Assembly: GCA_019057815.1 (NCBI GenBank) | Contig: JAHLWR010000006.1 | Span: 32,001-96,000, forward strand | Direction: 5' to 3' | Source of the DNA: Candidatus Heimdallarchaeota archaeon | GTDB lineage: Archaea; Asgardarchaeota; Heimdallarchaeia; Heimdallarchaeales; Heimdallarchaeaceae | DNA: 64,000 nucleotides | Part shown: positions 19,753 through 32,658 of the stretch, piece by piece | Position numbering within the stretch: position 1 is the first letter of the stretch | How the letters are laid out: the number at the start of each line of letters is the position of its first letter | Made by a program: the position numbers and the translations under genes | The notes under the pieces: model-generated | What the model was told of the DNA's origin: nothing | Seen by the model: only the letters and a program-made list of their open reading frames with translations | The model's database searches: none

Positions 19753-20520
19753 TTACATTTTCTCGTTTTTCACCGGAAAGTAGAGTGGATAAATAAGTCT
19801 CGCAAAGTTCTGATATGCTTCCACACTATAATCATTTTCATTGAGTAAAACTTCAAGTTTAATAATTTCATATTCGCTGTAGCCACGCATTTCAGGGAAA
19901 AGGTTTGAATCACCGAAGTCGAATATTTTGTAAACTACATCTTTTAACTCACCTAATTCTACATATGCTTCAACAAGTAAGTGAATGTGAGGTGTAAGTT
20001 GTTCTAGTTGGTTATCTTCTTTTACCGATTTTGCAATTCGAATGATTGAATGTATAGCTGCTCTACGTGTGATGTAATCCTTCACGTAAATGACATTTTT
20101 AAGTGAATATAAAACATCCACATCATCAAGAAAACCTATAGATCTAATTGCTGCATACTGTAAATCATAATCACTTTCTTCTAGAATTTTGGCTATAATT
20201 TCTTTTGAAGAATAATCTTGCATTTTACCTAGAACTTCTAATACAACAAGTTTAACTGATAAAGAAGATATATTGATTAAATCGTGAAGGTGGTTAAGAG
20301 TGTTCCCTTTATGTTCAGGATAAACTTCTATCAGTTCTAGCAACGTAGAAGCTGCAGCGTTTCTAACATTCCAATCACTATCATGAAGGAAAGTATAAAC
20401 TAAATTTAAATCAGTTTCTTTTCCTTTTTCTTTCAAATAAAACAAAACTTTGAGCCGATTTAAAGCGTTTTCATTATCTTTTTTACGAAGAATAATTCGG
20501 CGTTTTAGGAAGTTAAACAT
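19753..20520 (-). CDS. HEAT-repeat protein
   Basis: Repeats LHDSDWNVRNAAASTL / SLSVKLVVLEVLGKM / DYDLQYAAIRSIG / DYITRRAAIHSI. Confidence 0.8.
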   Translation of the reverse strand: MFNFLKRRIILRKKDNENALNRLKVLFYLKEKGKETDLNLVYTFLHDSDWNVRNAAASTLLELIEVYPEHKGNTLNHLHDLINISSLSVKLVVLEVLGKMQDYSSKEIIAKILEESDYDLQYAAIRSIGFLDDVDVLYSLKNVIYVKDYITRRAAIHSIIRIAKSVKEDNQLEQLTPHIHLLVEAYVELGELKDVVYKIFDFGDSNLFPEMRGYSEYEIIKLEVLLNENDYSVEAYQNFARLIYPLYFPVKNEKM

Positions 20521-20532
20521 AATTTTCCCTGC

Positions 20533-22083
20533 TTATAAATTATATAACCCTTCTTTGATAAGATAGGCTATTGCTCCTCTTTGTGGTTGCGTTAGTTTCT
20601 TCAAGTATGTGTAATCAATGTTTTCAACAACTGTCTGTTCCTTTTCTTCATCTAAGTCTGATATATATGCATCTTTTCTCTTTGATACTTGAACTGCTCT
20701 TGTCACAACGGGAAGATTGTAAGGACTTAGAGGTTGTTGTTTACCTATTTTATGTACTGCAAAGAGAGTTGCAACATGCATTCCTCCAATTTTCTTAATG
20801 GTAATAATATCAGCAAAAGCCGGTAAAATTGTTCGAAAGTCCTCTCTGTATAAAACCATATGATTATGGAGTATCACAAGCTGATCCAAACCTATACCGT
20901 GATCATTAACCTCAAACACATAGACTTTCTTTTCATCAGCATTAACATAACCTTTCGAAGATATTCTAGGGTTATCATCAAGTAGTTGTCCAAAGGTTCC
21001 ATATTTCTTTCGATAAGTTTTTTTGATGTAATTATCTATTAAATTCCAACCATAAGCGTAAATTGACCAAATGTCAGTATAGTGGCTTTTAGTTGTATGC
21101 CATGAATCAACGACAGTTTCAGAGTGGGAGTTCTTTTGAGTTGATAACCAATCTTTAAACTCATTCCAAGTAAAGTTTTCGAAGAATTCTAAGTCTGTTT
21201 TGAAACTAAATAGCTTTTCAAAAAGTTCTTTTTCATCACGTAGTTTTACAGCCAATTTGTCAACAAGGAATAGACTAAAAACCCCAATGGGTGGGGCCAT
21301 GTACCCTTTCAATTCTTTTAGATGCTCCTTTGGTGAGTATTCTTTACTCTCCTTTAAGTATTCTATGTGCTTTCGTTGAATATAAAAAGCAAAACCTTCT
21401 TCAACAAAATCATGTAAGTGCTTTTTTCTTGCAACATTTGCTCTTTCTTTGAGAACATTTATAGCTTCTATTGAAAAATTATTAAACAATGTATATTTTC
21501 GGGCATCTTCTGGAGGTTGATAAAAATCTTCAATCCCCGCCTCTGTAAATAATCTGATAACCGCAACTAAATCCTGATAGTATTGCCAAGCCCACATATG
21601 TTTTTTTTCAGATAAATCATTGAGTCTAAAAGCATTATTTTGGAATAGTTCCTTCAATATTATGTCAAATTGGTATAACTTAGCCAGTGTTCGAGCACTA
21701 TTCGATGAAGATTTTTCATTCATATATGTGTGTGCAAATGCATGCACTAACATTACCCGCAGAGTGTACTTTTGCTCATTAGAAAGTTCATAATTTGGAA
21801 CAGAAAGATAAATTAAAGTTGGTAAGGAATTGAATGTTGTTTCTTTTCCAATGGGCATGAACTCACTTACTCTCGCAGATCGCAGATGAGTTATCTCTTC
21901 AGCGGAAAGAATTGCTACTGGAGTACCAGAAGATTCTAACACTCTATTAACAGAAATGTGTATCTCAGGATTAAGAAAAACAAGCACTCTATAATTCTCT
22001 GGAGTGTCTTCAACAAGAGTTTTGAAATCTTCTCTCGCTTTCTGATAAACGGTAATTATGTCAGCTAATTCAGTTTTAAGCAT
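20533..22083 (-). CDS. Hypothetical protein with zincin/SpoVR-like HxxxH and EEGFA motifs (catalytic Glu absent)
   Basis: VMLVHAFAH (H114/H118) and VEEGFAFY (E228-G230); overlaps the vWA gene by 8 bp. Confidence 0.55.
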   Translation of the reverse strand: MLKTELADIITVYQKAREDFKTLVEDTPENYRVLVFLNPEIHISVNRVLESSGTPVAILSAEEITHLRSARVSEFMPIGKETTFNSLPTLIYLSVPNYELSNEQKYTLRVMLVHAFAHTYMNEKSSSNSARTLAKLYQFDIILKELFQNNAFRLNDLSEKKHMWAWQYYQDLVAVIRLFTEAGIEDFYQPPEDARKYTLFNNFSIEAINVLKERANVARKKHLHDFVEEGFAFYIQRKHIEYLKESKEYSPKEHLKELKGYMAPPIGVFSLFLVDKLAVKLRDEKELFEKLFSFKTDLEFFENFTWNEFKDWLSTQKNSHSETVVDSWHTTKSHYTDIWSIYAYGWNLIDNYIKKTYRKKYGTFGQLLDDNPRISSKGYVNADEKKVYVFEVNDHGIGLDQLVILHNHMVLYREDFRTILPAFADIITIKKIGGMHVATLFAVHKIGKQQPLSPYNLPVVTRAVQVSKRKDAYISDLDEEKEQTVVENIDYTYLKKLTQPQRGAIAYLIKEGLYNL

Positions 22084-23461
22084 TTAGAATACTCTCCCTT
22101 AGTATCTGTTCTCCTAGCTGCTTTATTTGCGCTGGGTCAATCAAGATTGGTCTAGTAATACCTTTTAACATTCTTTTTGTGTGGCTGTAGATTTCTCTTT
22201 TCCTTAGTGCTTCGGTTCCCATCAAAAAGTAACTAATGTTCCAGTTTCTAGCGTGATCTCTCTTTAGATTTTGAAAAATACCATTTAATTGCACTAAACA
22301 TTCGATTGTTTCTAGTTTTGTTTTTGTATCTATTTCATTGAAATAACGTTTGAGGTCAGAACTAGTTTTATGTTTAAATGGATATGTTGGGACATTTGGC
22401 ATACCGTCTGTTACTATTGTAAATTGAACATCTATATTTTTCTCATTATACTGCTTCTTAGCGTGTTTAATTGCTTGGAGAACACTTTGAACTGTATATG
22501 TTTTTCCTTTAGCTTTTGCGCTTAATAACAAATTCTCCATCTTGTAGTCATCATCAACAACGAATGGATTGTTTGTGATAGGTACAACTGCTAGCTTAAA
22601 CATGTCGTAACGTTTCCTTTTCCTGCGATTTAATATTTTAAAGTAATAATACAGACTTAAAGATGTTAATAAGGCTCCATCAAGACGCGACATACCGCCT
22701 TCAAAAACTGCTTTTTGCATGGATTGGCTCAAGTCTACAATGAAATAAACAAGACTTTTTCGATCTTTTTTTACTCGTATAATGTCTTCTTGTTTGACAC
22801 TAGTTGGTGGAATGCTTTTTGAACTCAGAATTGCACTTTTATATGTTTCCTTCAATTTTATTGTTCCACGAGGACGCTTTTGAACATCATCGATTGGTGA
22901 AACATTTATTTGCTTCATTAAATAGTTACCAAGAAGTTTTCCTAGAACTTCCATCACGTCTTCTCGGCTAATTCTTTTTTTCCTCCCAAAAGCATCAGTG
23001 ATTTCAAGATCAACTATTTCTCTAAGTTCTTTCAGCTTTTCAGCGAGCATCTGTAAATCTGCAAATCCTTCGTATTTTAAGTCATGAAGGAGTGTATTAA
23101 TGTACTTCATAATATCTTCAACCGTCTGAAGTTCATTTCTATTAACTCTTTCAAGCACATCTGGAAGAATTCTGTCCCCTATAAAACGTAATAATTTGAG
23201 TTCATTAACAAGCCTTTCTTCCTCAGCTTGTGTTAAGTGGGTTGTCATTATTTTTTGAGCTATGTTAGCTATAGCTACAGCATTTTTAGCTCCTAAAGAT
23301 AGTACAGCTCCTTCACGTGAACTACGACCCAGATGTGGGTTCCTCCAAAGTCTCAGGAGCTGTGCAGCACCTTCCCAATCGAGAATAAATTCTGCATCAC
23401 CAAAGTTTTGTAATGGGTCCCGAAACTCCGATTCTGTAAGAAGGAAAATACGGTGAGGCAT
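22076..23461 (-). CDS. vWA (MIDAS) domain protein, AAA+ partner
   Basis: FIVDLSQSM (DxSxS), GKTYT (T), IVTDGMPN (D) after an N-terminal helical region. Confidence 0.88.
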   Translation of the reverse strand: MPHRIFLLTESEFRDPLQNFGDAEFILDWEGAAQLLRLWRNPHLGRSSREGAVLSLGAKNAVAIANIAQKIMTTHLTQAEEERLVNELKLLRFIGDRILPDVLERVNRNELQTVEDIMKYINTLLHDLKYEGFADLQMLAEKLKELREIVDLEITDAFGRKKRISREDVMEVLGKLLGNYLMKQINVSPIDDVQKRPRGTIKLKETYKSAILSSKSIPPTSVKQEDIIRVKKDRKSLVYFIVDLSQSMQKAVFEGGMSRLDGALLTSLSLYYYFKILNRRKRKRYDMFKLAVVPITNNPFVVDDDYKMENLLLSAKAKGKTYTVQSVLQAIKHAKKQYNEKNIDVQFTIVTDGMPNVPTYPFKHKTSSDLKRYFNEIDTKTKLETIECLVQLNGIFQNLKRDHARNWNISYFLMGTEALRKREIYSHTKRMLKGITRPILIDPAQIKQLGEQILRESILNA

Positions 23462-23487: not shown

Positions 23488-25032
23488 TTATATATAATCA
23501 ACTTTTAATAACTGCTCATAGCTTGACTTAAGATTTTCAACTATAGCAGGAATCTCTTCAGTTTTGTAATAACGTTCTAGATTTTCATATTTAACAATTA
23601 AACCAGAAAGTTCTTTGTCACTTAAAGCTTTCATTTTTGATATATCTTCACTTATATCCTCTGCTTTGACTGCGATTTCAGACTCTTTGATATTGCTTCT
23701 CAAGTGTATTTTTATCTCTTGTAAAGCATCATTAATCATTGAAACAGGAATGTCATAATCATTAATTATCTGTCTTACATGTTCCAAAGATATTATATTG
23801 AAACCATCATCGTCAACATCTTTTGTTCGATTGAGTAGAACGCTACCAACAATGTTTGAAGTAGTACGAAGGTCTATATGGGGATTACGTTGAGGATCGT
23901 GAATTTCATCAAGACCTGCATAGAAATCAAGTCTTTGAACACGGCTTTCTGATCTTATCCCTCCACGCTTTAATGAAGGGGGGAGCGAATTGTTTCCAAT
24001 AAACGATAGAAAATCAATTGCTAACCGACTAACATAATCTTTTACGCTTCTTTCTCTTTCATATAACTGGAGAAGTGCAGGATTTGCAGTAATTCTCTGT
24101 CTCGAAAGAATTACTTGCTCAACAAACATATCTCTAACAATTTGGTTACGATTTTCAACTGACCTTGCTGGCCAAAGAACTTCGGGAATACGGTTAATAA
24201 TAGGTTGGGATTCTTCTCCAAATACTGTTAATGGGGCATTTGAGGTGAATATAACTGCACCATCTATATACACAGGTTCACCTTGAATATTATATTTAAC
24301 AGAGCTTGTGTCTTCTAAGAAACCCATTAGTGATTCCAACAACGATAGTGGTAATCTTTGAATTTCATTTACTACAATAAAACCTTGGCTGAGTACACCA
24401 ACTTTATGCGAAGTAGCAGTGTACGTTGTACTAGTTTCTTTGCCAAAAAGTTCTTCGAGATTTTCAACACCAGCTAAAAGCATGTAAAGACTCTCTGGAT
24501 CAGTACGAGGATCCAATTGTGCTTTACGAACAATCGTTTTTTCAACTGCTAGTTCCTTTAACCTTTCAACAAACATAGCAGGTTTTATTTGGAGTATACT
24601 ACTAGTATCATCTAATAGTACCCCTTCTCCCAAAACTTTCTCAATATTAGCTCTACAGAATGGGCATAATGATTGTAAAACCCTTATACTACCAAAAGGA
24701 TTAGCTTCGAAATCTTCAATGATATTGATGATATAACCAGCATCTTCAAGAAATGGACATTCAGCAATGTGTTGCTTGGAATTGTTTATTTCTCTGACAA
24801 TGTGATCAAGAAGTATTCGTGCAAACATTGATTTTCCTTCACTTGTTACACCAGTTATCAGTACTTTTCCTCCAACTGCTAATTTATCCATTATGAGATT
24901 CTTAGCATCTATGTTTCCTCTAACACTTGGATCATTTATTACTCTTTTACGAAATTCTTGATCCATTAAAATATGTCTAACTGAATAACCTTTGTAGCCA
25001 TCTTCAATTAATTTAGCAACTGTATGTGTCAT
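23488..25032 (-). CDS. AAA+ ATPase of the Mg-chelatase/MoxR (helix-2-insert) clade
   Basis: Walker A GVTSEGKS, CPF..CPFC insert, Walker B GFIVVNE, sensor-1 FTSN, Arg finger PIINR. Confidence 0.85.
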   Translation of the reverse strand: MTHTVAKLIEDGYKGYSVRHILMDQEFRKRVINDPSVRGNIDAKNLIMDKLAVGGKVLITGVTSEGKSMFARILLDHIVREINNSKQHIAECPFLEDAGYIINIIEDFEANPFGSIRVLQSLCPFCRANIEKVLGEGVLLDDTSSILQIKPAMFVERLKELAVEKTIVRKAQLDPRTDPESLYMLLAGVENLEELFGKETSTTYTATSHKVGVLSQGFIVVNEIQRLPLSLLESLMGFLEDTSSVKYNIQGEPVYIDGAVIFTSNAPLTVFGEESQPIINRIPEVLWPARSVENRNQIVRDMFVEQVILSRQRITANPALLQLYERERSVKDYVSRLAIDFLSFIGNNSLPPSLKRGGIRSESRVQRLDFYAGLDEIHDPQRNPHIDLRTTSNIVGSVLLNRTKDVDDDGFNIISLEHVRQIINDYDIPVSMINDALQEIKIHLRSNIKESEIAVKAEDISEDISKMKALSDKELSGLIVKYENLERYYKTEEIPAIVENLKSSYEQLLKVDYI

Positions 25033-25066: not shown

Positions 25067-25675
25067 TTATTTTTGAGAATCTTGTAAATCCTCTTCAATA
25101 ACTATTTCAACGCGTTTTTTTGCGCGTTTTTCTAATAATTTTTCTTTTTTCATCCAATCCTTTTTCCAGCCTAACCTAATTACATCCTTGAGCCAGTTCA
25201 TAGCTTCAAGAAGTTCCGAAACCTCTGGTGTTTCAAATATTTGCCAGTTTCTATCAGTAAGTCGAATAAGCGAGAGGTTTTCTATGAGTTCTCCTCGAGA
25301 TAGTGCACCTTGAAGGTTTGAGTTGTAGGAACATATTGCAATTGGAAGATTCTTAGTGTTTTCAGACCAAAGTAGTTTCTCCCATAAGAAAATTCTTTCA
25401 TATTTAATCATATCTTCTTTTGATGCATCAATGAGATAAAGTATGCCTTCGAATGGTTCAAACAAATTTGGTTTGAACTTAAATCTTTCGTTTATTGGTA
25501 ATTTATTGAGGGAGTCATCGATAATAAAATCAGATGTTGGAGCATGTGTATTTAAAAGGCGAACTCTGTTGCGCGTTGCAGGATTAGAACAACCAATAAT
25601 TAGTATAGAAACCTCTGGTTTACCTAATTTTCTACGTAATTTCTGTTTTAAAGATGATTTGGTCATGCTAGTCAT
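25067..25675 (-). CDS. Arf/Sar1-like small GTPase-fold protein with degenerate G motifs (pseudoGTPase)
   Basis: Collinear with Arf: EVSILIIG, GILYLIDAS, PIAIC, LSLIRLTDRNWQIFET, LLEAMNWL; G1 reads GCSNPATR and G4 reads YNSN. Confidence 0.75.
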   Translation of the reverse strand: MTSMTKSSLKQKLRRKLGKPEVSILIIGCSNPATRNRVRLLNTHAPTSDFIIDDSLNKLPINERFKFKPNLFEPFEGILYLIDASKEDMIKYERIFLWEKLLWSENTKNLPIAICSYNSNLQGALSRGELIENLSLIRLTDRNWQIFETPEVSELLEAMNWLKDVIRLGWKKDWMKKEKLLEKRAKKRVEIVIEEDLQDSQK

Positions 25676-25804
25676 TGGGTCTCGCTATTGTGCAAAGACT
25701 ATAAATGTTTAAGAATGTTATGTCACCAAACTCATAAGTGTACAGACTAGTTCAATCAATCTGTAATGGGTTTTACTTCCCATATTTGTAGAGGAGAAAA
25801 AAAC

Positions 25805-26305
25805 ATGCTATATAAACAAAAGATTCTCAATGTTGTTGTTGCTGGTATTAATAATGAAGACAAATGGCTACTAATTAAGCGTAAAAAAGGGGATTACCAA
25901 GATAAGTGGGCACTTGTTGGGGGAAAAATGGAATTTGGTGAAACAATTAAACAAGCTATACTGAGAGAAATTAGAGAAGAGACAGGATTAAACGTCGTTT
26001 GGAATGGAGTAAAGGCTCTAATTAATGAAAGATTACTAGAGAAAGAATCAGGACAACAAACGAAACATTTTCTAATAATATTATGCCACACTGTTACTGA
26101 AACTGGAAAAGTGAAACCTACAGATGAAGGGTTATTACAATGGTTTAGTTTAGATGAGATTAGAACAATAGAAGAACAAATAATTCCTTCTGATTTTTAT
26201 ATGATAACAGAGTTGTTAATTGCACAAAACATGAGTGGAATTATTGAAATTGACTTGGAACAGGAAGAAGGAAATCTAGAATTAAGTAAACTAAGTATTT
26301 ATTAA
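25805..26305 (+). CDS. NUDIX hydrolase (MutT-like)
   Basis: Nudix box [24 protein letters not shown]; ATG 25805 follows GAGGAG. Confidence 0.92.
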
Positions 26306-26323
26306 AGAAGGTAAAAGAAGGTA

Positions 26324-27286
26324 ATGAAATTGGATGTCAAAAAAGAAGTTTTAGACGCGGAAATACGCATAAGAGACTATATAAGAGAAACTCCAATCGA
26401 ATATTCCCCTTTTCTAAGTAAAAAGGGGAAAGGAAAAGTTTTTCTTAAACTGGAAAATTTTCAGATAACAAGTTCTTTTAAATTACGTGGCGCGTTAAAT
26501 AAACTTCTATTTTTTAAGGAACAAGGCATTAAAGAAGGTTTTATCACTGCTTCAACAGGTAACCACGGGGCCGCATTTGCTTATTCATTGGAAAAGCTTG
26601 GATTGTCTGGGTCTATCTATTTACCTAAAACCACTTCACCTGCTAAACTCGAAGCTCTACGGGATTATAACGTGGAACTAAAATATTATGGAAATGATTG
26701 TATTGATACTGAAAAATATGCTAAAAAAGTAGCAGAAAACGAAAATAAACATTATATTTCTCCCTACAACGACCCACAAATCATTGGTGGTCAGGGAACA
26801 ATAGGAATAGAACTTGAGAGACAACTTGATGTCTTAGATGCTGTTTTTGTTCCTATAGGTGGAGGAGGGTTGATTTCTGGTGTTGGAGGATATCTCAAAT
26901 CTATTAATAATGGTATTGAAATCGTTGGATGTCAACCACTAAACTCTCCTGTTATGTATGAATCTCTGAGAAAAGGGCAAGTTATTGATATGGAATCAAA
27001 ATCTACTCTCTCTGATGGCACTGCTGGGGGTATAGAAAAAGATTCAGTAACTTTTGATATATGCAAGCAGAGTGTTGATAATTTTGAACTTGTTTCCGAA
27101 GAAGAAATAAAAAGAGCTATACATCTGGTTTTTGAAAAACACTTTATGACTGTTGAAGGAGCTGCAGCTCTTACTGTTGCCTCGTTCATCAAAAGAGAAG
27201 AACAGTATTCAGAACAAAACGTAGTTTTAATAGTTAGTGGAGCTAAAATAAGCTTGGATGTAATGAAAAAAGTTTTTTGTAAATAG
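26324..27286 (+). CDS. ilvA: PLP-dependent threonine/serine dehydratase
   Basis: LKLENFQITSSFKLRGA, ASTGNHG, PIGGGGLISG. Confidence 0.85.
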   Translation: MKLDVKKEVLDAEIRIRDYIRETPIEYSPFLSKKGKGKVFLKLENFQITSSFKLRGALNKLLFFKEQGIKEGFITASTGNHGAAFAYSLEKLGLSGSIYLPKTTSPAKLEALRDYNVELKYYGNDCIDTEKYAKKVAENENKHYISPYNDPQIIGGQGTIGIELERQLDVLDAVFVPIGGGGLISGVGGYLKSINNGIEIVGCQPLNSPVMYESLRKGQVIDMESKSTLSDGTAGGIEKDSVTFDICKQSVDNFELVSEEEIKRAIHLVFEKHFMTVEGAAALTVASFIKREEQYSEQNVVLIVSGAKISLDVMKKVFCK

Positions 27287-27401
27287 ATTTAGATATTTTC
27301 AAATAGTTTGTGAATTAGGTTTATGAACTACACCACCTAAAGGGAGATAATTTATACTGTGTTCAGTAAAACATATTTAATGTAAAGATAATGATAGACA
27401 A

Positions 27402-28316
27402 ATGAAAGCTATAGAAAATATGATAGAATTAATTGGTAACACACCTTTGTTGAGATTACGAAAAGTTTTTCCTGATTCCAAAATTTTTGGAAAGTGTGAA
27501 TTTATGAATCCGTTAAGCTTGAAGGATCGACCAATTTTACAGATTTTCAAAGATGCTGAAGACGCAAGTAAATTGAAACCCGGTGATACCGTAATTGAAT
27601 GTACAAGTGGTAACACAGGAATGGCTGTTGCTTTCATTTCAACCATTAAAGGTTATCATGCTGTTTTAGTGATGTCTGAAATCCAAAGTATTGAAAGACG
27701 TCAGATTCTGAGAGCGTTAGGAGCCGAGTTGATTCTTACTCCTGCTGAACTTGGAACTGAAGGAGCAAGACAAAAATTAAAAGAGATACTCGAAGAACAT
27801 CCCGATTATTTCTATGTTGGACAACATATTAATTCCTCCAACCCAAAGGCTCATTATTTGACTACAGGACCAGAAATATGGACAGATACTGAAGGTAAAA
27901 TAGATATTTTAATTGCTGGATTAGGTACTGGTGGAACAATATGTGGTGCAGGGAAGTATTTAAAAGAAAAAAATCCCAATATTCGTCTTCTAGCCGTTGA
28001 GCCTTTTGAATCACCATATATTTCGAAGGGAATCTTTCATCCCCACATGATTATGGGTACAGCACCTGGTTTTTTCCCAAAAATACTAGATGTAGAGATA
28101 ATTGATGAAATTGTTTTAATAAAACAGGAAGATGCCTTTCAGATGTGTAGAGACATTGCAAGAAGAGAAGGATTATTAGTAGGTATTAGTTCTGGAGCTG
28201 TTTGCAAAGCTGCAGAGAAAATTCTTCAATACACAGAGAATAAAGATAAAATTATCGTTGTTGTATTGGCTGATACTGGACAGCGTTATTTAAGTGTTGA
28301 AGGGTTGTTTGGGTAA
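27402..28316 (+). CDS. cysK: Cysteine synthase (O-acetylserine sulfhydrylase family)
   Basis: IGNTPL, NPLSLKDR, TSGNTG, GLGTGGT, GISSGA, DTGQRYLS. Confidence 0.88.
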   Translation: MKAIENMIELIGNTPLLRLRKVFPDSKIFGKCEFMNPLSLKDRPILQIFKDAEDASKLKPGDTVIECTSGNTGMAVAFISTIKGYHAVLVMSEIQSIERRQILRALGAELILTPAELGTEGARQKLKEILEEHPDYFYVGQHINSSNPKAHYLTTGPEIWTDTEGKIDILIAGLGTGGTICGAGKYLKEKNPNIRLLAVEPFESPYISKGIFHPHMIMGTAPGFFPKILDVEIIDEIVLIKQEDAFQMCRDIARREGLLVGISSGAVCKAAEKILQYTENKDKIIVVVLADTGQRYLSVEGLFG

Positions 28317-28521
28317 GCTTCTTTATTATAAGTGGTCCACATTACATCTTTGATACTTAGATCAATTTCTTCTTCGAGACCTTCCGGATTATGTTTGATT
28401 TTGTAATTTGATATAAACTGATAAGTGATTTACATTTATTGATATTTCATTTTCAACAATCATTTGGACTGTTCAATTGTATTAACTTTGTAATACACGT
28501 TTTTATTAGATACAAATATTA

Positions 28522-28731
28522 TTGTTGGATGTGGAGTTTCTTAACTACTTTGATGTTCAAAGCGAAGAAATTGAAAACAAAGATGTCAGAAACTACTTAA
28601 AAAAACTCTATCAAGAAATTAGTGCTCCAAAAGGAAAAGTTTCCTCTTGGCAGATACTTTCTCATCCGGACGAAGGCATGAAGCGGATTTCAGTAATTTA
28701 CGATGTAGAAGGAATAAAAAATCTGAAATAA
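28522..28731 (+). CDS. Small hypothetical protein
   Basis: Free-standing 69-aa ORF with protein-like composition, co-oriented with its neighbours. Confidence 0.5.
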   Translation: MLDVEFLNYFDVQSEEIENKDVRNYLKKLYQEISAPKGKVSSWQILSHPDEGMKRISVIYDVEGIKNLK

Positions 28732-28882
28732 AAGTTGTATTTTCAGCTTTAACATTATGTTTAACAACATTTTTTTGTAAATCATTAAAATAACCTTAAA
28801 TTGAAGATAAAACTTCACTTCTTTTTAAGGTGAAATCATTCTGTTGAATAAGCAGACTTTTCAATCTGAAAGAGAGGTGAAA

Positions 28883-30862
28883 ATGAGGATGCCACTAAAA
28901 ATAGAAACATCAATGAAACCCAAAGGAGACCAACCTAAAGCAATAAATCAGTTAGTGGAGGGTGTGAAGAAAGGTGCGAAATTTCAAACACTGATGGGAG
29001 TGACAGGATCAGGAAAAACAGCTACAATGTCATGGGTTATTGAACGCCTTAATCTTCCTACTCTTGTTGTTGCTCCAAATAAGACTCTTGTGGCTCAGCT
29101 TTATGGTGAATTTAAAACTTTCTTCCCTTCTGCTCGCGTGGAATATTTCGTTTCATTTTACGATTATTATCAACCTGAAGCTTATCTTCCCTCTAAAGAT
29201 CTCTATATTGAGAAAGATGCCGATATCAATAAAGAGATTGAACGCTTACGTCACTCAACACTTGAAGCTTTAGCCACCAGAGAAGATGTAATAATTTGTG
29301 CTACCGTTTCTTGTATTTATGGCACGGGTAATCCTGAACTTTATCGGCTTAAAAAAATCTCTTTGGCTGTTGGGGCTCCTTTTGATCGTAAGGATTTAAT
29401 GATGCAACTTGTATTGAATCAATATCAAAGGAATGATATTAACCTGGTTAGAAAGAGTTTTCGCGTGCGTGGAGATTCGATTGATATCTTTCCAATGTAT
29501 GGTGATCATGTATATCGTATAGAGTTCTTTGGAGATGAAGTTGAACGCCTAACATCTCGTGATCCCATAACTAATGAGAAAGTTAGAGATTTAAGGTATC
29601 TAGATCTCTACCCAGGTACGCACTATTTAACAAGTGAAGTGTGGTTTGATGATGCTTTAGAAGCTATCAAAATTGAACTGGATATGCGCTTAGCTGAACT
29701 AGAGAAAGAAGGAAAAATTGTCGAAGCCCATAGATTAAGACAACGAACACTTCATGACTTAGAACTACTAAAGGAAACACATGGGTGTCCAGGAATCGAG
29801 AACTACTCTCGACATTTTGATATGCGGAAGAAAGGCGAAAACCCCTTTACTCTCCTAAATCACTTTCCTGAAGACTTTCTTCTAGTTATTGATGAATCGC
29901 ATCTTACAATTCCCCAAATAAGGGGGATGTTTAAGGGAGATTATGCTAGAAAGAAGAATCTCATAGAGCATGGTTTTAGACTCCCTTCAGCTTTTGATAA
30001 TCGTCCTCTTAAATTTGAAGAATTTGAGAAATATATCAATAAGACTATTTTTACCAGTGCAACACCTGGTCCATATGAAGAGAAAAACTCGTCCCAAATT
30101 GTTGAACAAATCATACGTCCAACAGGATTAATTGATCCTAGTATTGAAGTTAGAGCAACTGAAGGGCAGATTGTGGATCTTATTTCAGAGATAAAACAAA
30201 GAATATCCAATAAAGAGCGTGTTTTAGTTACAACCTTATCAAAGAGTATGGCTGAAGAATTATCAGGATATCTTATAGATATGGGAATAAAATCTGTTTA
30301 TTTACACCATGAAGTTAACACATTAGAGCGAATAAACATACTTAAAGATTTGAGAACGGGTAAATATGATGTTGTAGTAGGAATAAATCTTCTTAGAGAG
30401 GGATTAGATTTACCTGAAGTAAGTTTGGTTGCTATCCTTGATGCAGATAAAGAAGGTTTCTTGCGCTCTAAAACATCACTTATTCAATTAATGGGACGAG
30501 CTAGTCGTAATATTCATGGTCATGTGTTACTTTATGCGGATAAAGTGACCGACTCAATGAAATATGCTATTGTTGAAAATAATAGAAGAAGACAGATACA
30601 ACTTGATTTCAACCGAAAATACAATATTAAACCAAAAACTGTCACAAGCGAGATCAAATCAATAGTTGACGCCTTAATGCAAGTTTCACAGGATGATGAA
30701 ACAATAAAACTTCCTAGAGAAATGTCAAGCTCTGATATACCTTTTATTATAGACGATTTGAAACACAAGATGGCGGAAGCAGCTGCTGAACTGAATTTTG
30801 AACAAGCAGCTTCTTATCGCGATAAAATAATAGAACTTGAAAAGATGAGGTCTAATTTATGA
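28883..30862 (+). CDS. uvrB: Excinuclease ABC subunit B
   Basis: GDQPKAI, GVTGSGKT, YDYYQPEAY, DESH, GINLLREGLDLPEV, C-terminal UVR; ATG 28883 follows GAGGTG. Confidence 0.98.
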   Translation: MRMPLKIETSMKPKGDQPKAINQLVEGVKKGAKFQTLMGVTGSGKTATMSWVIERLNLPTLVVAPNKTLVAQLYGEFKTFFPSARVEYFVSFYDYYQPEAYLPSKDLYIEKDADINKEIERLRHSTLEALATREDVIICATVSCIYGTGNPELYRLKKISLAVGAPFDRKDLMMQLVLNQYQRNDINLVRKSFRVRGDSIDIFPMYGDHVYRIEFFGDEVERLTSRDPITNEKVRDLRYLDLYPGTHYLTSEVWFDDALEAIKIELDMRLAELEKEGKIVEAHRLRQRTLHDLELLKETHGCPGIENYSRHFDMRKKGENPFTLLNHFPEDFLLVIDESHLTIPQIRGMFKGDYARKKNLIEHGFRLPSAFDNRPLKFEEFEKYINKTIFTSATPGPYEEKNSSQIVEQIIRPTGLIDPSIEVRATEGQIVDLISEIKQRISNKERVLVTTLSKSMAEELSGYLIDMGIKSVYLHHEVNTLERINILKDLRTGKYDVVVGINLLREGLDLPEVSLVAILDADKEGFLRSKTSLIQLMGRASRNIHGHVLLYADKVTDSMKYAIVENNRRRQIQLDFNRKYNIKPKTVTSEIKSIVDALMQVSQDDETIKLPREMSSSDIPFIIDDLKHKMAEAAAELNFEQAASYRDKIIELEKMRSNL

Positions 30863-32658
30863 GCCTTTTCTCCGATTTAGAATCTTTACCTGATGTTCCT
30901 GGGATTTATTTAATGAAGGATGAAAATGAAACAGTTATCTACGTTGGCAAGGCTAAAAGTTTGAAACAAAGGGCAAAACAGCATTTTGCAATCACTGAAG
31001 ATTCAAAAGAACTTCAACTTCAAACATTAACAAAAAGAGTCGATTGGTTTGTAACAAGAACAGAAGCAGAGGCTATATTATTAGAAAAAAGGATGATACA
31101 GCAATTATCACCCAAATTGAATGTTAAGCTTAAAGATGACAAATCGTCTCTTCTAATCCGAATAACAATGGAAGAGAGATATCCACAACTTTTGATAGTT
31201 CGGGATACTGACTTAAAAATGAGAAAAAGCCTATATTTCGGTCCATATCCAAGCGCGACTGCACTTCGTGAAACTGTTAAGCTGATTTTGAGACTTTTTC
31301 CTATTTGTAATTGTGGAAAAAAAGTTGAAAGGATGAGAGAAAGGAAAACTACTGTTAGGTGTATGCGTGCCAGAATTGGACGATGTTTAGCTCCCTGTAT
31401 GAACGATGTTTCAGTAAGGCAATACAAAAAACACGTTCGTAATGCCATATCTTTTCTTCAAGGGGAGGTTGCAGATCTTTTTGATAGCCTTGAAAAAGAA
31501 ATGTGGGAAGCAGCAGAACAAGAAAATTTTGAGAAATCTTCAGAAGTTAGAAATCTTATTGCAACTATTCAATCGTCTCTGTTTTTCCAGAAAGATACAA
31601 GATCAGAAGTGCGTGATGTTGATATATTAGCATTTGAAGAAGATGAAAATATTATTGTTTTTTGTAAACTGGAATTTCGTGCTCACCGTATTAATCATTT
31701 ACAAATTTATACACACATGAAAGAAGAAATATCTCCAACTACCATGAGAGAAATATTCTCTCTCGTATATGGTATTGAGCGTCCAAAAGCTAAATTACTA
31801 ATAAGTAAAAAAATGGTAGAGCGGTTTGTGAATGATGAAAAAATAGATTTCTCTACTCCAACCGATGAAAAATCAGAAGATTTAGTTGAAATTGCAAGGA
31901 AAAATGCAAAAACTGAGCTCCTAAAATATATGAGAGACGAAAAATATAAGGAAGATTTAGTCAAAACTCTGATGGAAATGCAAAAACTCCTACGTTTACC
32001 AAAAAAGCCTGAAATAATACATGGAATTGATGTGTCTACTTTGATGGGACGTTTATCTGTTGGATCATGTGTTACTTTTGTTAATGGTATTCCTGAAAAA
32101 AAACTCTACAGAAGATTCAGGATTAAAAACCCCTATTCCAACTCTAATGATTATGCTATGATGAAAGAAGTGATTACTAGAAAATATCGTTCTCCTCAAT
32201 TAGAATCTGATCCATCTCCTGATCTCATCGTGATAGACGGTGGAAAAGGACAATTAAATGTTGCACGAAAAGTAATGATAGATCATGATTTGCCTTTTCC
32301 CGTTGTAAGTATTTCAAAAAAGCATGAAAAAATTTTTGTTGAATGGACCAATGACCCTATAATTCTCCCTAAAACATCTCCAATGCTTAAATTAATACAA
32401 AGAGTAAGAGATGAATCTCATAGATTCGCAATTAGTTACCACAGATATTTAAGAAAAACGACTATGCAAGAATCCATCTTTGAATCTATTAAGGGAATTG
32501 GAAAGCAAAAAACGCGAATACTATTTACTAATTATAAGAATGTAGAAGAAATTACTGAAGCAAAAATCGAAGATATTGCTAAAATACTGGGAACAAACGA
32601 AGAAATAGCGGAAAAAATTGTTGAACTTGCAAAAAAACTCAAAAAGACAGATTATTAG
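30859..32658 (+). CDS. uvrC: Excinuclease ABC subunit C
   Basis: PGIYLM..IYVGKAK GIY-YIG, Cys cluster, DLIVIDGGKGQ, RDESHRFA, HhH. Confidence 0.97.
   Translation: MSLFSDLESLPDVPGIYLMKDENETVIYVGKAKSLKQRAKQHFAITEDSKELQLQTLTKRVDWFVTRTEAEAILLEKRMIQQLSPKLNVKLKDDKSSLLIRITMEERYPQLLIVRDTDLKMRKSLYFGPYPSATALRETVKLILRLFPICNCGKKVERMRERKTTVRCMRARIGRCLAPCMNDVSVRQYKKHVRNAISFLQGEVADLFDSLEKEMWEAAEQENFEKSSEVRNLIATIQSSLFFQKDTRSEVRDVDILAFEEDENIIVFCKLEFRAHRINHLQIYTHMKEEISPTTMREIFSLVYGIERPKAKLLISKKMVERFVNDEKIDFSTPTDEKSEDLVEIARKNAKTELLKYMRDEKYKEDLVKTLMEMQKLLRLPKKPEIIHGIDVSTLMGRLSVGSCVTFVNGIPEKKLYRRFRIKNPYSNSNDYAMMKEVITRKYRSPQLESDPSPDLIVIDGGKGQLNVARKVMIDHDLPFPVVSISKKHEKIFVEWTNDPIILPKTSPMLKLIQRVRDESHRFAISYHRYLRKTTMQESIFESIKGIGKQKTRILFTNYKNVEEITEAKIEDIAKILGTNEEIAEKIVELAKKLKKTDY

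Follow-up and report, generated by a model that had tools for sequence, protein, structure and literature searches.

A conserved Arf-fold pseudoGTPase in an AAA+/vWA operon of Heimdallarchaeia and its predicted HEAT-repeat partner

The locus described here raises the question of what an Arf-family protein may be kept for when the motifs that make an Arf a nucleotide switch have gone. The window (the whole stretch of archaeal DNA that was analysed, 64,000 nucleotides) contains such a gene, and for its product, called here pseudo-Arf, a first-pass annotation had proposed a nucleotide-independent adaptor or membrane tether. It is the first of five co-oriented genes, separated by gaps of 34, 26, -8 and 12 bases:

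25067..25675, minus strand: Arf-fold pseudoGTPase (pseudo-Arf), 202 aa, first gene of the operon (open reading frame, Pfam, PDB match and model)
23488..25032, minus strand: AAA+ ATPase, 514 aa, MoxR/chelatase-like, with Walker A GVTSEGKS, a variant Walker B VVNE and a cysteine-containing insert (Pfam and features)
22076..23461, minus strand: vWA protein, 461 aa, with the conserved MIDAS residues D243, S245, S247, T321 and D352 (profiles and alignment)
20533..22083, minus strand: SpoVR-like protein, 516 aa, so called by predicted shape only, with a zincin-like HAFAH without the catalytic Glu (model)
19753..20520, minus strand: HEAT-repeat protein (HEAT_2, alphaRep-like), 255 aa, with a basic amphipathic N-terminus, the predicted partner of pseudo-Arf (Pfam and predicted complex)

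The frame of pseudo-Arf is intact, as had been annotated, and the plus strand of the same span contains many stops. Residues 71-165 match the Pfam Arf profile (PF00025) with an E of 1.7e-8 and 34.6 bits, above the cut-off of 22.3, and the Arl3, Arl1 and Arf1 chains of the PDB were matched by sequence, the best one at E 6.8e-8, so the likeness to Arf that had been noticed by eye is real and beyond chance, although it extends over the C-terminal half of the protein and not over two-thirds of it. The Arf profile was matched by 33 of the 42 aligned orthologs and the Ras, Roc and Gtr1 profiles by none of them (E 0.01), while a search of NCBIfam with pseudo-Arf gave no match. Judged by its sequence, the protein is related to Arf by descent, yet it fails to show the motifs of an active switch. 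It is found as a single copy in the genome of the window, which also encodes three intact ArfRs and numerous further small GTPases. The degenerate parts are:

25571..25594, minus strand: degenerate G1/P-loop position, residues 28-35, GCSNPATR (sequence and ortholog alignment)
25448..25543, minus strand: shortened switch I/interswitch/switch II region, residues 45-76, with one strand, no DxxG and no modelled switch II helix (model and alignment)
25316..25327, minus strand: degenerate G4, YNSN, residues 117-120 (sequence and ortholog alignment)

The G1 sequence GxxxxGK[S/T] is absent, with GCSNPATR in its place, the G2 threonine and the G3 DxxGQ region are deleted or replaced, and YNSN and FETP stand where NKxD (G4) and SA[K/x] (G5) would be found. 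The erosion of G1, G3 and G4 was therefore described correctly in the first-pass annotation, and the SAK of G5 is missing too. The shortening of switch I/II was also borne out: the G1 glycine and the beta4 aspartate are 56 residues apart, versus 69-77 in canonical Arfs, and 14-16 residues are missing from the switch region.

An AlphaFold model, built on an alignment of 44 sequences (pLDDT 83.5, pTM 0.81), has five strands (beta1, one in the old switch region at residues 50-57, and beta4 to beta6), and both the switch II helix and the two-stranded interswitch hairpin are missing, with no helix before beta4. With Foldseek, GerdArfR1 and HodArfR1 ranked first (E about 1e-7) and the Arf family filled the whole top 50. 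VIA-align gave Z values of 15-16 against Arf6, Arf1 and HodArfR1 (144-158 residues aligned at an rmsd of 2.5-3.1, with one chimera at 5.2), 13-16 across Arf/Arl/Sar and below 13 for other GTPase families. The predicted fold is thus that of a small GTPase, nearest to Arf, with the switch parts cut away, since the structural matches are Arfs and the elements on which Arf switching depends, namely the interswitch hairpin and switch II (bioRxiv 10.1101/2024.02.28.582541), are absent. With G1, G3, G4, G5, switch II and the interswitch hairpin all missing no GTP/GDP cycle is expected, and from sequence and model together we infer that pseudo-Arf does not bind nucleotide.

The loss is shared by the relatives. 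Neither DxxG nor NKxD is present in any of the 42 aligned orthologs, which come from five families, and none of them has a whole P-loop; 43 further database proteins (55-93% identity), labelled Heimdallarchaeaceae or Heimdallarchaeota where named, with one Thorarchaeota label, show the same eroded motifs. The P-loop position is kept in Heimdallarchaeaceae as PATRNR, with R35, N36 and R37 invariant and G28 nearly invariant. Three pseudo-Arfs of Kariarchaeaceae type (L087:6856-7386, minus strand, L085 and L086) have a bare G-K-T straight after beta1 and have lost the remainder of the P-loop, the tripeptide being likely a vestige of the GTPase ancestor. The nearly invariant G28, the PATRNR kept in Heimdallarchaeaceae and the G-K-T of some Kariarchaeaceae could mean that pseudo-Arf acts as a sensor on the AAA+ machine, regulating it through retained, non-canonical binding of a nucleotide or some other small ligand, but the P-loop segment varies in length and sequence across families (weighted identity 0.41) and no family has G4 or G5, the motifs that recognise guanine, so we find this reading unlikely.

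A search of 400 genomes of the phylum brought up pseudo-Arf in 57, belonging to five families (f1-f4 and f7) and only to Heimdallarchaeia; f1 contains the Heimdallarchaeum genomes and f4 proteins labelled Kariarchaeaceae, and distant members were brought in by a deeper search. The median dN/dS over 52 close pairs, which are not independent of each other, was 0.094 (0.03-0.24), and the value between the pseudo-Arf of the window and its nearest relative was 0.071; the all-pairs median of 0.62 stems from saturated distant pairs and the close-pair figure was used instead. If the gene were an active ArfR copy now decaying towards a pseudogene, the three intact ArfRs of the genome could make such a fourth one redundant, and the protein of f3 is indeed very diverged (158 aa, no Pfam match). 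Against this, the frame is open in 57 genomes of five families, dN/dS is about 0.09, the pseudo-Arfs form one clade (100/99) and surface residues are invariant. The orthologs share the loss of the motifs under purifying selection, and the ortholog census and the dN/dS values refute a decaying copy, to which we give practically no credit. Having a GTPase fold and degenerate G motifs and being conserved under selection, pseudo-Arf is probably a class I pseudoGTPase.

In a tree of 97 usable columns the clade of pseudo-Arfs sits on a long branch, and AU tests on these columns, with a Rab-like outgroup included, rejected no sister group (p 0.30-0.50). A first tree had joined the pseudo-Arfs to P0070, a degenerate eukaryote-like Arf; this was treated as long-branch attraction and the P0070 row was left out of the second tree. 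A transfer from a eukaryote, considered because the best PDB sequence matches were Arl3 and Arl1, is compatible with the tree and yet unsupported, since the family is found in two orders and has the longer alpha3 seen in Asgard ArfRs (in HodArfR1 and the Heimdall ArfRs, as in pseudo-Arf, alpha3 is one residue longer than in eukaryotic Arfs). The family profile scores the HodArfR1 type highest among Asgard GTPases (up to 52 bits versus 18-36 for other ArfRs). All 24 genomes of f5 and f6 have this type, against none of the 59 genomes of the families bearing pseudo-Arf, which hints, as one phylogenetic contrast on which the AU test has no preference, that pseudo-Arf may be a dead ortholog of HodArfR1. 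The active HodArfR1-type ArfR (L094:220-786, minus strand; genomes G056-G079) matches PDB 8OUL at E 1e-83, and in the loci seen another small GTPase gene stands in tandem with it.

The conserved operon and the predicted HEAT partner, neither of which the first-pass annotation of this gene mentions, are the main clues to function. Up to the ends of their contigs, all the named loci (29 of 29) have an identical gene order. Of the 55 genomes with the AAA+ gene, all from one class (the order of the window, f1-f4, and family f7) among the 400 of the phylum, every one also has pseudo-Arf. It lies directly upstream of AAA+ in 45 of 55; in 9 genomes it is not linked or stands in a rearranged order, and in 1 it is truncated by a contig end. 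The HEAT gene is accompanied by pseudo-Arf in 53 of 54 genomes, and none of the AAA+, pseudo-Arf and HEAT genes was found in the 24 f5/f6 genomes. Because the genomes are kin, these counts show stable co-inheritance and not many independent events. In a metagenome contig of 2.85 Mb pseudo-Arf (L131:10001-10603) and AAA+ (L137:8001-9560) are about 400 kb apart and the other operon genes are not nearby.

The surroundings of the operon vary. In the window it is flanked on its upstream side by divergent plus-strand neighbours (25766-32658), a NUDIX hydrolase (Pfam), two genes for PLP-type enzymes and, by eye, uvrB/uvrC. The NUDIX gene is directly upstream in nearly all Heimdallarchaeaceae loci, and uvrB/uvrC come after the HEAT gene instead in many relatives. 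In f7 an actin-like gene is located two genes upstream (L032:488-1549), and the operon is followed by a Roadblock/LC7 gene of 133 aa (PF03259, E 7e-6; L078:2437-2838, minus strand, and L079-L082), whose family is known for regulating small GTPases in other systems. At 30 bases upstream of pseudo-Arf stands a TATA-like hexamer, which is not conserved among orthologs, and no fused forms of pseudo-Arf were found among proteins of 376-2000 aa, which is weak evidence. Four of the operon genes are partly covered by contigs of one metatranscriptome from a related strain, pseudo-Arf among them with its 3' half; DNA carry-over is possible there, and the data were not counted as evidence.

The AAA+ members match Sigma54_activat, AAA_5 and Mg_chelatase and the vWA members VWA_2 and VWA_CoxE. 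The AAA+ features resemble those of MoxR/chelatase clusters and a vWA gene bearing a MIDAS is adjacent, as in MoxR-type pairs. The Asn of Walker B is invariant (VVNE in all members) and Walker A reads GPTGEAKT in most families. The model of the SpoVR-like protein, compared with models of SpoVR clusters, reaches a TM of 0.55 over 371 residues, a predicted model against a predicted model; a Foldseek search of the PDB gave no match for this 516-aa protein. HAFAH replaces the zincin HExxH, with an EGF glutamate downstream, and the histidines and the glutamate are lost in other families, so the SpoVR-like protein is, from its sequence, probably a second dead enzyme of the operon. The AAA+, vWA and SpoVR-shaped genes are in the same order as in the bacterial PrkA(YeaG)-YeaH(DUF444)-SpoVR(YcgB) system, whose proteins act together (bioRxiv 10.1101/072470), but the AAA+ protein is shorter here and MoxR/chelatase-like, and no Pfam PrkA, DUF444 or SpoVR (PF04293) match was found in the operon members scanned. 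Compared with that system and with MoxR-type pairs there are two extra genes here, pseudo-Arf and HEAT.

A distant version of the cluster (L133:3894-9530 and L135:3803-9530, with the NCBI labels Heimdallarchaeota and Hodarchaeota) has AAA+ divergent from vWA, the SpoVR-like gene and a HEAT gene of 377-391 aa. These distant triads have no adjacent pseudo-Arf and their HEAT gene is a different, longer one, which suggests that the AAA+/vWA/SpoVR-like triad is older and that pseudo-Arf and the short HEAT were added to it. A search next to distant AAA+ homologs for an intact Arf, as the ancestral state, found none; the neighbours of 171-192 aa are unrelated.

The prediction of a complex between pseudo-Arf and the HEAT protein gave an ipSAE of 0.77, a mark reached by roughly 58 of 80 solved pairs and 2 of 110 mismatched ones (own alignments used), and the best of the three controls gave 0.00. 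At least 98% of the contacts are shared between runs, and the partner has a pLDDT of at least 79. The score is a model confidence, and as the PDB contains Arf-solenoid complexes a memory effect is possible. The predicted HEAT face of pseudo-Arf (residues 94-103, 135-145 and 161-169) lies on the back, away from the old nucleotide site:

25367..25396, minus strand: alpha3 part of the predicted HEAT face, R94, W98, E99 and W103 (predicted complex and conservation)
25241..25273, minus strand: alpha4-beta6 loop, core of the predicted HEAT face, residues 135-145 including R138, T140, D141, R142 and W144 (predicted complex and conservation)
25169..25195, minus strand: alpha5 part of the predicted HEAT interface, W161 to G169 (predicted complex)

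W161 aligns with W172 of Arf1, which we take to be part of its contact with AP-1 gamma. Weighted identity is 0.68 in the interface and 0.42 elsewhere (0.41 in the old G1 and 0.44 in the old G4), and 8 of the 15 most conserved positions of pseudo-Arf are found there, although the conservation test and the complex prediction share alignments and are not independent, and the conserved L-x-x-R-x-W of the patch is also an Arf family signature that may be structural. On the HEAT side D119 is invariant and L87, E95 and Y122 nearly so. Between f1 and f7 the two proteins differ hardly at all in their interface residues, though the pseudo-Arfs of the latter are 24-32% identical to that of the window. 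In f4 pseudo-Arf 143-144 and HEAT 50-51, which are predicted to touch, have changed together, and in f3 there is drift on the two sides of the interface; these paired changes, two or three events seen in the same alignments as the model, are only suggestive. The model thus predicts that pseudo-Arf binds the HEAT protein as a heterodimer through its back face.

The gene of pseudo-Arf adjoins AAA+ and not HEAT, alphaRep-like HEAT proteins are generic binders and the HEAT pairing is the sole one modelled, and this leaves some room for an artefactual HEAT prediction, with AAA+, vWA or the SpoVR-like protein as the main partner or pseudo-Arf as a client of AAA+/vWA. We think this improbable, as the score was 0.00 when the HEAT protein was paired with either of two unrelated proteins of similar size, and also when pseudo-Arf was paired with an unrelated protein, and the distant triads without adjacent pseudo-Arf have a different, longer HEAT protein.

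The membrane part of the first-pass annotation is less well supported. The feature concerned is:

25628..25669, minus strand: basic N-terminal helix, residues 3-16, amphipathic in most Heimdallarchaeaceae and absent from f2 and f7 (model and alignment)

The helix is present and basic as annotated (net charge +6), and in this copy it is weakly amphipathic, with a hydrophobic moment of 0.44 and a mean hydrophobicity of about 0. In most Heimdallarchaeaceae orthologs it has a moment of 0.52-0.82 and a charge of +3 to +5, and in the alignment of 42 orthologs those from f7 and f2 lack it, so tethering cannot be family-wide. The C-terminal tail, K/R-rich and then acidic, was confirmed as well; it is modelled with low confidence as a helix (174-200) and is a typical feature of this genome family only. 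Asgard ArfRs bind membranes via their N-terminal helix (bioRxiv 10.1101/2024.02.28.582541; PMC11914678), and the helix of Heimdallarchaeaceae pseudo-Arfs resembles those of the three intact ArfRs of the same genome (moment 0.56-0.66). The truncated interswitch is the part that normally pockets or ejects the helix, and its deletion could leave the helix always exposed, as in GTP-bound Arf, making pseudo-Arf itself a constitutive membrane tether or curvature factor. We consider this rather unlikely: the invariant residues sit on the predicted HEAT face and not at the N-terminus, and with the helix missing in f7 and f2 and weak here such a role could hold additionally for one family but cannot explain the retention of the whole family. 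The N-terminus of the HEAT protein is basic and moderately amphipathic in all families (moment 0.32-0.69), and with the helices of both proteins membrane binding is possible for the pair, although, from the sequences, it is not the conserved job of pseudo-Arf.

The best reading, in which we place somewhat more trust than doubt, is that pseudo-Arf is a nucleotide-independent, HEAT-binding accessory subunit serving the AAA+/vWA/SpoVR-like machine, probably a permanent building block rather than a switch. The proposed adaptor function agrees with the Arf fold, the motifs gone across orthologs and the purifying selection. The nucleotide site of an Asgard Arf-family GTPase would have been lost before several families of Heimdallarchaeia radiated, and the protein would have been kept afterwards as a rigid binding domain without a GTP/GDP cycle, retained in single copy under purifying selection, co-occurring with the AAA+, vWA-MIDAS, SpoVR-like and HEAT genes and usually preceding them. 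Its alpha3, alpha4-beta6 loop and alpha5 are predicted to pack against the HEAT repeat helices. The pair would be an accessory module added to the older triad, which may position an ATP-driven remodelling machine or bring clients to it, and basic amphipathic N-terminal helices (of HEAT, and of pseudo-Arf in some families) might, more speculatively, hold the module at the membrane.

Pseudo-Arf has the same fold as the Asgard ArfRs (HodArfR1, 8OUK/8OUL; GerdArfR1, 8OUM/8OUN) and eukaryotic Arf/Arl, collinear from beta4 to alpha5, and shares the N-terminal helix with them in some families. It differs from them in lacking G1, G3, G4, G5 and the switch II helix, in a shorter switch region, in family-specific alpha3 tryptophans and in a fixed operon context. 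Eukaryotic class I pseudoGTPases (the N-terminal domain of AAGAB, CENP-M and the pseudoGTPase domains of p190RhoGAP) likewise have a GTPase fold without G motifs, whereas pseudo-Arf is archaeal, Arf-derived, stand-alone, operon-encoded and of independent origin, its loss of nucleotide binding being deduced. CENP-M is a weak feature look-alike (0.86), a lead only, and FBXO4, whose GTPase-like domain is presumably counted in the same class, is among the structural matches of pseudo-Arf (Z about 12). AAGAB contacts its partner through a surface other than the switch regions (PMC12490416), which is also the prediction for pseudo-Arf. In Arf1 the back side, a surface off the switches, contacts the helical repeats of the AP-1 gamma trunk, an alpha-solenoid (PMC6627992), again as predicted here, but the HEAT protein is short and alphaRep-like, with generic adaptin similarity only, and this likeness implies no homology and is drawn without a geometry comparison. 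Neither of the Asgard Arf papers cited here (bioRxiv 10.1101/2024.02.28.582541; PMC11914678) mentions the pseudo-Arf family, and a literature search for pseudoGTPase with Asgard gave no match and no description of pseudo-Arf.

Asgard Arfs have so far been described as nucleotide switches, and the present data indicate that in Heimdallarchaeia one was made into a switch-less binding module long ago, a use of the GTPase fold otherwise known from eukaryotic pseudoGTPases. Counts of "Arf GTPases" in Asgard genomes based on Pfam include proteins unable to switch. Pseudo-Arf offers an entry point to an uncharacterised AAA+/vWA/SpoVR-like machine, for whose bacterial look-alike we know of no biochemistry either, and with the HEAT solenoid it would form a small two-protein complex with named interface residues that can be tested. 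As a long shot, an ortholog of HodArfR1 may have lost its switch and become the permanent partner of a HEAT solenoid, using the back face of the Arf1:AP-1 gamma contact, in a pair that recruits the AAA+/vWA machine to the membrane. If true, this HodArfR1-derived pair would be a prokaryotic Arf-plus-solenoid adaptor in the archaea closest to eukaryotes.
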